Part shown: positions 13,147 through 14,032 of the stretch, in pieces
Numbering within the stretch: position 1 is the stretch's first letter
Layout: each line of letters opens with the position of its first letter
Source of the DNA: Escherichia coli
GTDB taxonomy: Bacteria; Pseudomonadota; Gammaproteobacteria; Enterobacterales; Enterobacteriaceae
Direction: 5' to 3' (one strand)
Assembly: GCF_001677475.2 (NCBI RefSeq)
Contig: NZ_CP015229.1
DNA: 64,000 bases
Made by a program: the position numbers and the translations under genes
The notes under the pieces: generated by a model
What the model was told of the DNA's origin: nothing
The model's input: only the letters and a program-made list of their open reading frames with translations
The model's database searches: none

Positions 13147-13179
13147 AAATAGTCAAGGATTGTTCCTCTCATTAATTTA

Positions 13180-13761
13180 TTATTCCGGGTTATACAAAAT
13201 ATTCAGTTTTGCACCTTGTACCAGTTTATATTCTTTATACTCTCTTTCTACTTCATGTCGCTCGGCTTTGTTTAACTGTGTGGTCAATTTTCTAAGGTTT
13301 TCAACAACAATAGCCATATTTAATTCTTCAGGAAGCGATCTTGTTTCACTCCATTTTTTTCCGTGTAAAAACCCGCCATGGTCTATATTAAAATGGGTTT
13401 CCTCTACACTGAATATTATTTTTGTGCCTAGCCCATCTTGTCTGATGGATACAGTTTGGCGTAAATAATCATTTTGAGAAATAAAATTTATATCTTTGGG
13501 GGTTCCATCAATATTGGACTCGAAAGAGGTTACTTCTGCCATGAGTTTAGATACTCGCTGAGAATTAAACTCGACTTTCCCATGCGTGATGAAATGAATA
13601 AGATCCTTCAAGAGATTTGTAAAACCATCAATCTTTTTATAAATAACTGCGTTTAATTTTGATGAATTTGCAAATTTTTTATCTGCTTTAACCAGGTCAT
13701 TCTGAAATTGCTCCAGTGTTATTTTATTTTGAGTTCCTATATTATTATTATATATCGTCAT
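13180..13761 (-). CDS. hypothetical protein, AT-rich orphan ORF
   Basis: 193-aa uninterrupted ORF in markedly AT-rich DNA between ssb and yjcB; no motif I can recognise. Confidence 0.5.
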   Translation of the reverse strand: MTIYNNNIGTQNKITLEQFQNDLVKADKKFANSSKLNAVIYKKIDGFTNLLKDLIHFITHGKVEFNSQRVSKLMAEVTSFESNIDGTPKDINFISQNDYLRQTVSIRQDGLGTKIIFSVEETHFNIDHGGFLHGKKWSETRSLPEELNMAIVVENLRKLTTQLNKAERHEVEREYKEYKLVQGAKLNILYNPE

Positions 13762-14032
13762 GATCTTCTCCTTTATAATTTATTGAGAACATTACGTTGG
13801 ACGTTAGGTAGTACAATTTATTTGTTTTCATCCTAGCCTTAATCAAATTTTGAACTATCAAAAATTGCTCATTTGTATAAAATTCAGCAAGGAGGTGGCG
13901 AAGATAGTGAAGATGCTAAGCGTACAACACCTTCAAGCGTTGATTAAAAGAAAGTGCGATATGTGATGATAGGGCGGCCGAGGAAGCTATTCATCGACCG
14001 CTTGTGAAGGGATAAAAGTCAAGAAAGTGAAA

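Follow-up and report, generated by a model that had tools for sequence, protein, structure and literature searches.

A probable orphan gene in a rare AT-rich islet between ssb and yjcB of Escherichia coli

The ssb-yjcB junction and its replacement spacer

The stretch of DNA analysed here, hereafter the window, spans 64,000 nucleotides of Escherichia coli contig NZ_CP015229.1, and its genes around the locus of interest follow the usual E. coli order: uvrA (9455-12277, minus strand), ssb, a spacer, yjcB, and pdeC from about 14775 (plus strand). An earlier note, written from the sequence alone, had singled out the ssb-yjcB spacer as nearly 1 kb long and AT-rich, and measurement bore this out, with a GC content (300-bp windows) of 0.28-0.36 across 13150-13900 compared with 0.50-0.61 in uvrA and ssb. 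Elsewhere in the window, two more AT-rich patches at 7001-8000 and 21001-22000 (GC 0.35 and 0.36) lie amid core DNA of 50-60% GC. The spacer, which we refer to as the islet, and its surroundings comprise the following features:

12532-13068, plus strand: ssb, core gene, left border of the islet
13069-14032, no strand: islet (ssb-yjcB spacer), 964 bp, AT-rich, in place of the usual 98-bp spacer
13080-13146, no strand: left edge with two hairpins, conserved between allele classes
13831-14032, no strand: right edge, between yjcB and the 193-aa open reading frame (ORF) that lies further downstream; allele classes differ here at 0-2 positions
14033-14314, minus strand: yjcB, core gene, right border, same direction as the 193-aa ORF

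In alignment, homology to K-12 stops at the ssb stop codon (TAA in the window, TGA in K-12) and resumes at the yjcB stop codon; the islet has nothing in common with the 98-bp K-12 spacer and replaces it fully from stop codon to stop codon, the yjcB terminator included. No integrase, transposase or other mobility gene was present among the ORFs of the islet, and a search of its borders found neither flanking direct repeats nor a tRNA-type attachment site, only a 23-nt inverted pair whose 74% complementarity is at chance level.

Both edges contain potential secondary structure. The first hairpin of the left edge (13080-13107) has 13-nt arms that are 85% complementary, and the second, situated between the convergent ssb and 193-aa ORF, has a perfect 12-bp stem (13118-13129 paired with 13135-13146); folding of this region gave z = -4.3 relative to shuffled sequences. 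A G-to-A variant of the left-edge hairpin, found in other alleles, keeps a G.U pair on the plus strand only, which is that of the ssb transcript. No U-run follows these hairpins on either strand, and none follows the right-edge hairpin (13974-13981 paired with 13994-14001). An Rfam search of the islet returned no family (best match E 0.53). Rfam matches above the gathering score elsewhere in the window, at 17197-17337 (minus), 63552-63717 (plus), 37626-37680 (minus), 24589-24660 (plus) and 57807-57884 (minus), are sraL, STnc630, a SECIS element and two naRNA4 (REP-type) elements, all ordinary E. coli features.

The presence/absence comparison across E. coli that the earlier note had proposed was run on 5426 complete genomes. 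The islet was detected in 22, always on the chromosome and in one copy each, a count that was identical at megablast and blastn sensitivity; the ORF it carries is accordingly far from universally conserved. A full K-12-type 98-bp spacer occupies the junction in 5360 of the 5426 genomes, leaving about 66 without a full one. Every BLAST match to the islet was a full-length islet, with no DNA in common with other occupants of the junction. The site itself has been recorded before: Hochhauser et al. (2023, PMC10121019 S1 Table) list it as integration hotspot 39 (yjcB-ssb), which held an occupant in 38 of the 1292 genomes where it was detected, strains of the ST399 complex carry an 18-kb yjcB-ssb defense island with Detocs and dGTPase at the same junction (PMC11728103), and the 24-kb Salmonella SPI-4 has ssb and yjcB as its flanks (PMC12607715). 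In the window strain, then, a rare allele has replaced the usual ssb-yjcB spacer, at a junction already documented as an integration hotspot. The earlier note had read the islet as horizontally acquired, and this reading is supported by the rarity of the islet, by the unrelated spacer in most genomes and by the published hotspot; its DNA is foreign-looking.

The islet resembles the other occupants of hotspot 39, including the Detocs-dGTPase island, in using exactly the same junction, in its presence/absence polymorphism and in its rare occupancy (22 of 5426 genomes for the islet, 38 of 1292 for the hotspot), but it differs from them in being a 0.96-kb, single-gene segment with no mobility gene and no recognised defence system. 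SPI-4 of Salmonella enterica shows that the same core-gene junction takes foreign AT-rich DNA in a sister genus; however, no sequence or protein similarity to the islet was found, and the siiA-F genes of SPI-4 specify a type I secretion system and a giant adhesin, whereas the islet would specify a single soluble protein of 193 aa. Genomic neighbours of homologues, which the earlier note had proposed to check for defence-island association, were read at 18 loci, all of which lie between yjcB and ssb, the junction published as defence-island hotspot 39.

The 193-aa reading frame and its allele classes

The main features of the reading frame, given here for the allele in the window, are as follows:

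13180-13761, minus strand: orphan coding sequence, class A allele, 193 aa, 22.3 kDa, pI 7.9, soluble; identical to GenBank ANO92017.1
13768-13773, minus strand: Shine-Dalgarno site AAGGAG, six bases upstream of the ATG; kept in class B, AAGGAA in class C
13591-13761, minus strand: N-terminal third, codons 1-57, unconstrained; no stop codon in any class
13291-13590, minus strand: protein core, codons 58-157, conserved; predicted structure a single helix, then a sheet of four strands, then the first part of another helix
13180-13290, minus strand: C-terminal tail, codons 158-193, class A only; predicted long helix

The ORF starts at an ATG (13759-13761), and the exact protein of the window, ANO92017.1, is annotated as 'hypothetical protein'. 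Within the spacer, up to 199 consecutive codons are free of stops, compared with 78 +/- 18 in 5000 first-order Markov simulations of the same spacer, 0.02% of which reached 199 (p≈2e-4), and GC content by codon position within the ORF is 0.43 / 0.27 / 0.28. The predicted protein is hydrophilic, with a maximum 19-residue Kyte-Doolittle mean of 0.38, which agrees with the earlier description of a protein with no transmembrane segment. The same description had made this the only ORF of the spacer; it exists where described, but it is accompanied by a 102-aa antisense ORF (13160-13468, plus strand) and shorter ones. The frame of the antisense ORF is probably not kept in other alleles, because 1-bp and 2-bp indels of those alleles fall inside it. 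At 13889-13966 on the plus strand, a strong Shine-Dalgarno-like AAGGAGG is followed by an ORF of 17-19 codons, MLSVQHLQALIKRKCDM, which is convergent with yjcB, starts at GTG 13907 or ATG 13913 and ends at 13966; it is probably not coding, as a 1-bp deletion in class C shifts its frame.

Alleles of the 193-aa ORF fall into three classes:

Class A: the window, GF4-3; 193 aa; ATG start, C-terminal tail
Class B: S51 type, 20 of the 22 complete islet genomes; 158 aa; GTG start
Class C: N3 together with numerous contigs from draft assemblies or metagenomes; basic form 158 aa, with a (TTCAA)n repeat

Compared with class A, both other classes have a 12-bp deletion near the start, and around codon 157 they have a 1-bp and then a 2-bp deletion that bring in a stop, so that their proteins end in NLPHS and the last 36 residues are specific to class A.

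Divergence between the classes is distributed very unevenly. Most of the flanking core DNA and the islet edges (13069-13179 and about 13831-14032) show 0-5 mismatches per 100 bp, and classes A and B are identical over 13861-14032, whereas 13200-13800 shows 10-30 mismatches per 100 bp. The diverged block consists of the ORF plus about 70 bp upstream, and its dS of 0.15-0.35 is several times the 0-5% divergence of most flanking DNA, so the alleles look older than the DNA around them, or imported. In these alignments the gene body behaves as a variable cassette between near-identical edges that differ by at most 4%; either recombination has renewed the flanks around old, retained alleles, or the gene body has been swapped between the conserved edges. 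A search for a donor of the diverged gene body found none. Within uvrA, the segment 11900-12000 differs between the window and all other islet genomes by 9-11 mismatches per 100 bp, compared with 0-5 in neighbouring segments, and probably marks a recombination tract.

The N-terminal third and the core differ in their patterns of substitution. Codons 1-57 show 29-32% DNA divergence between classes, with dN/dS about 1.05, dS up to 0.35 and substitutions spread evenly over the codon positions, leaving no visible coding constraint. For the core, dN/dS (Nei-Gojobori) was 0.55 between A and B, 0.39 between A and C and 0.30 between B and C, at dS 0.15-0.21 and on 20-30 substitutions per class pair; the synonymous excess gave binomial p values of 0.014 and 0.013 in two of these comparisons, the remaining one giving 0.19. 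Second codon positions of the core changed least (5-6 changes versus 11-12 at the other positions), and within classes dN/dS was about 0.15-0.26 on very few changes. When the 46-79 substitutions observed between classes were placed randomly on one allele, the 158-codon frame escaped interruption in 2.4-4% of trials when A was compared with B or C and in 8% when B was compared with C, and the indels inside the retained frame, of 12 bp and 45 bp, are multiples of three. The ORF is probably a real protein-coding gene, and these comparisons indicate moderate purifying selection on its core (residues 58-157).

A different account would make the ORF a chance frame in AT-rich DNA and place the functional parts of the islet in its conserved edges, as transcript ends of ssb and yjcB or as a small RNA. 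The edges have indeed diverged far less than the ORF, the folding of the left-edge hairpins is much stronger than in shuffled sequences, and the N-terminal third is free of any codon-position pattern. However, the conservation of the edges equals ordinary core-genome divergence, for which no special constraint is needed, and the Rfam search of the islet was null; the length of the ORF, the frame kept open in three diverged classes, and the second-position deficit and dN/dS below 1 of the core all argue for a protein. We regard a non-protein explanation as very improbable, and treat the ORF below as a probable gene.

Repeat-tract variation, disruption and transcription context

Class C alleles carry a (TTCAA)n tract in the N-terminal coding region, at about codons 33-37, which is absent from the class A allele of the window. 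Alleles with this tract, from isolates or metagenomes, were read at twelve loci:

Loci L003, L006, L008-L014 and L016-L018: class C alleles carrying (TTCAA)n

Copy numbers at these loci were n = 2, 3 (four loci), 4 (two loci), 5, 6, 9, 11 and 17, of which only n = 2, 5 and 11 leave the full class C frame open; truncated variants had been chosen on purpose, so the proportions of open and interrupted frames in this set are biased. At the other copy numbers, gene callers begin the ORF either at an internal ATG, giving 105 aa, or upstream and out of frame, giving 146 aa, and among the listed members of cluster 3 of the homologue search described below, a shortened product was found in roughly a quarter of contigs. 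The tract looks like a site of slipped-strand on/off switching. Such switching is rare in E. coli, and simple-sequence-repeat contingency genes are known from Haemophilus, Neisseria and Campylobacter. Class C resembles these genes in having a short 5' coding repeat of variable copy number (2-17) that puts the frame on or off, but it differs from them in its E. coli host, its pentanucleotide unit and its product, which is cytoplasmic and belongs neither to the cell surface nor to a restriction-modification system; the repeat is absent from the window allele.

A second form of disruption was found in one complete genome, E. coli GPEC1446, in which, at locus L007 (2206-2903), an IS1A element sits in the 5' end of a class B allele and truncates the ORF. 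The gene is dispensable, being absent from about 99% of strains and sometimes inactivated by (TTCAA)n in class C or by IS1; disruption affects some carriers, not most.

These losses bear directly on the main rival to a functional gene, which is that the ORF is a decaying relic, once functional and perhaps part of a larger island, now a silent leftover drifting to loss whose selection signal records older history. Several observations are what such decay would leave: absence from about 99% of genomes, frameshift truncation of the C-terminus in classes B and C, the IS1 insertion, an N-terminal third that evolves neutrally, no convincing promoter, and a class C frame often put out by the repeat. 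Frequent truncation could equally mean a gene on its way out. Against decay, 46-79 substitutions have left the 158-codon frame uninterrupted in all three classes, an outcome with a chance of 2.4-8%, the indels within it are multiples of three, core dN/dS is below 1 even between B and C (0.30), the low dN/dS within classes points the same way on its very few changes, and the Shine-Dalgarno site is kept. We consider it unlikely that the ORF is a relic, while giving this possibility more weight than any other rival, and continue to favour a functional, dispensable gene.

How the gene would be transcribed is suggested by its surroundings. It lies on the yjcB strand, 271 bp downstream of yjcB. K-12 has a canonical terminator after yjcB (a 10-bp stem followed by a T-run), and in the window neither the interval from yjcB to the ORF nor the DNA downstream of the ORF contains a terminator-like site. 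The search for sigma-70-like promoters upstream of the ORF gave a best usable site matching at 8 of 12 positions; a 9-of-12 match overlaps the ribosome-binding site and start codon and cannot drive the gene. Because the K-12-type terminator is absent and neither a terminator nor a good promoter intervenes, co-transcription of the ORF with yjcB is plausible, and read-through from yjcB, probably weak, is the simplest source of its mRNA. The earlier statement that the gene has no partner holds for its neighbours, which are only ssb and yjcB, and needs qualifying for its transcript, as a transcript in common with yjcB is plausible on the shared strand.

Silencing by the nucleoid protein H-NS may also apply. 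One motif lies close to the start of the gene:

13777-13786, minus strand: H-NS-like motif TCAATAAATT, a 9-of-10 match to TCGATAAATT

The sequence TCGATAAATT is reportedly the high-affinity H-NS motif described by Lang et al. in 2007. The match is not significant alone, with 10 such matches in the window versus 4.9 expected, and it is from AT-richness that H-NS binding is predicted; repression of the gene by H-NS is probable, as for AT-rich DNA in general. H-NS-silenced xenogeneic orphan genes are known in enterobacteria, and the islet gene is like them in its GC content of 28-36%, its restriction to some strains and the lack of homologues and of a strong promoter, H-NS binding here being predicted only; it differs from most of them in persisting as several old alleles at one fixed site.

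Family searches, predicted structure and possible role

The earlier note had recognised no family motif in the protein, and profile searches with the window protein led to the same result, none of Pfam, NCBIfam, PADLOC and PHROGs yielding a significant match and PADLOC-DB v2 yielding no family at E <= 1. Other alleles gave marginal family matches only, to PbeC (E 0.011, 12.4 bits, PADLOC), to phrog_5553 (E 0.007) and to AbiGi (i-E 0.004). A word-indexed search of 5.8 billion proteins returned five clusters, to which a profile of 7 alleles at E <= 10 added one, all from E. coli, and an exhaustive phmmer scan of 1.84 billion representatives found 2, both labelled E. coli. Comparison of phage and plasmid records by tblastn gave no match at E <= 1, IMG/VR contigs and GTDB species representatives (one genome per species) held no confirmed relative, and an exact 24-mer from the conserved islet edge was absent from the GTDB species representatives. 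A match of the sequence profile to an S-layer protein in the PDB was rejected, its E value of 0.17 being the best obtained. A literature search with the protein accessions that were tried turned up no paper. By these searches the gene is a strict taxonomic orphan, known from E. coli and from the ssb-yjcB locus only, and it falls in no known defence, toxin or stress family. The result is a clean negative, in that homology methods are exhausted and no defence, toxin or stress system can be recognised in the gene.

The address of the gene and one of the marginal matches raise the question of a stand-alone anti-phage or abortive-infection gene, possibly remotely AbiGi-like, at a defence-island hotspot. 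AbiGi (PF10899) is the antitoxin-like member of AbiG, an abortive-infection pair of lactococci, and works with the adjacent toxin, AbiGii. Hotspot 39 hosts defence islands in other strains, the patchy distribution, divergent alleles and on/off switching of the gene would suit an anti-phage role, and residues 12-103 of one class C protein, P0035, align with PF10899 at an i-E of 0.004 and 17.6 bits. The protein is also like AbiGi in being small, soluble, K/N-rich and of similar length. However, the window protein has no match even at E <= 10, only 1 of the 7 aligned alleles matches at E <= 0.1, the match falls mostly in the least conserved, N-terminal part, and both proteins are rich in K, N and I, which makes composition bias likely. 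Moreover, AbiGii is absent, the only neighbours being ssb and yjcB, and PADLOC is null for the window protein, with the PbeC match of one other allele not significant. The AbiGi lead is unsupported, since the window protein and five other alleles do not match and there is no AbiGii, and we judge a stand-alone anti-phage gene, AbiGi-like or otherwise, to be quite improbable. The earlier suggestion of a stand-alone defence or stress gene gains no support from these results and is not refuted by them; PADLOC is null for the window protein, the PbeC match of another allele is not significant, and the sole hint is the AbiGi match of one non-window allele, which was not reproduced.

Structure prediction, which the earlier note had proposed along with the profile searches, gave two AlphaFold models of low confidence (pLDDT 48 and 47), which agree on helices, a four-stranded sheet (about residues 89-142) and a long helix. 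In a Foldseek search of the PDB with the first, single-sequence model, Pur-alpha ranked top (E 6e-3) and homologues of Whirly and PC4 ranked lower, with TM-scores of 0.24-0.29, which would suggest a single-stranded nucleic-acid binder of PUR/Whirly/PC4 type, functionally linked to ssb; the predicted order of four strands and then a long helix fits that fold. The second model, however, placed these targets at rank 21 or lower, with E values of 0.3 or worse, and a search of AFDB50 returned only the protein's own allele and unrelated, generic sheet-helix proteins. Low pLDDT and TM-scores, the lack of sequence support, and the orientation of ssb, which is convergent with the ORF and not co-transcribed with it, further argue against such a binder. 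The lead was rejected because the second model did not reproduce the first, and we find a PUR/Whirly/PC4-like protein scarcely credible.

With these leads set aside, we return to a real, dispensable orphan gene of no assignable family, an account that, together with the observations on the locus, we hold with reasonable confidence. A catalytic motif and a match to any enzyme family were both lacking in the window protein, which would therefore most likely act by binding a partner through its conserved, predicted helix-sheet core. A conflict-type role, as an immunity or antitoxin-like protein or a binder of a phage protein, fits best among the functions considered, given the patchy presence, old alleles, free-evolving terminus, on/off switching and defence-hotspot address of the gene; the argument is circumstantial and the role a tentative guess, which we would not rate as probable. 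For the function of orphan genes, a true orphan that is well delimited, shows signs of selection and is fixed at a known hotspot offers a tractable case. Two features would be of specialist interest if confirmed: a gene body far more diverged than its islet, through old alleles or cassette exchange, and repeat-tract on/off switching in one allele class. A stronger version of the conflict role, which we consider improbable, is that the ORF founds an E. coli-restricted, stand-alone conflict family of new fold (immunity, antitoxin or anti-phage), with ancient cassette alleles at a defence hotspot, specificity residing in the free-evolving N-terminus, and repeat toggling in one class. If this were true, the pentanucleotide toggling would be a contingency mechanism hardly known in E. 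coli.
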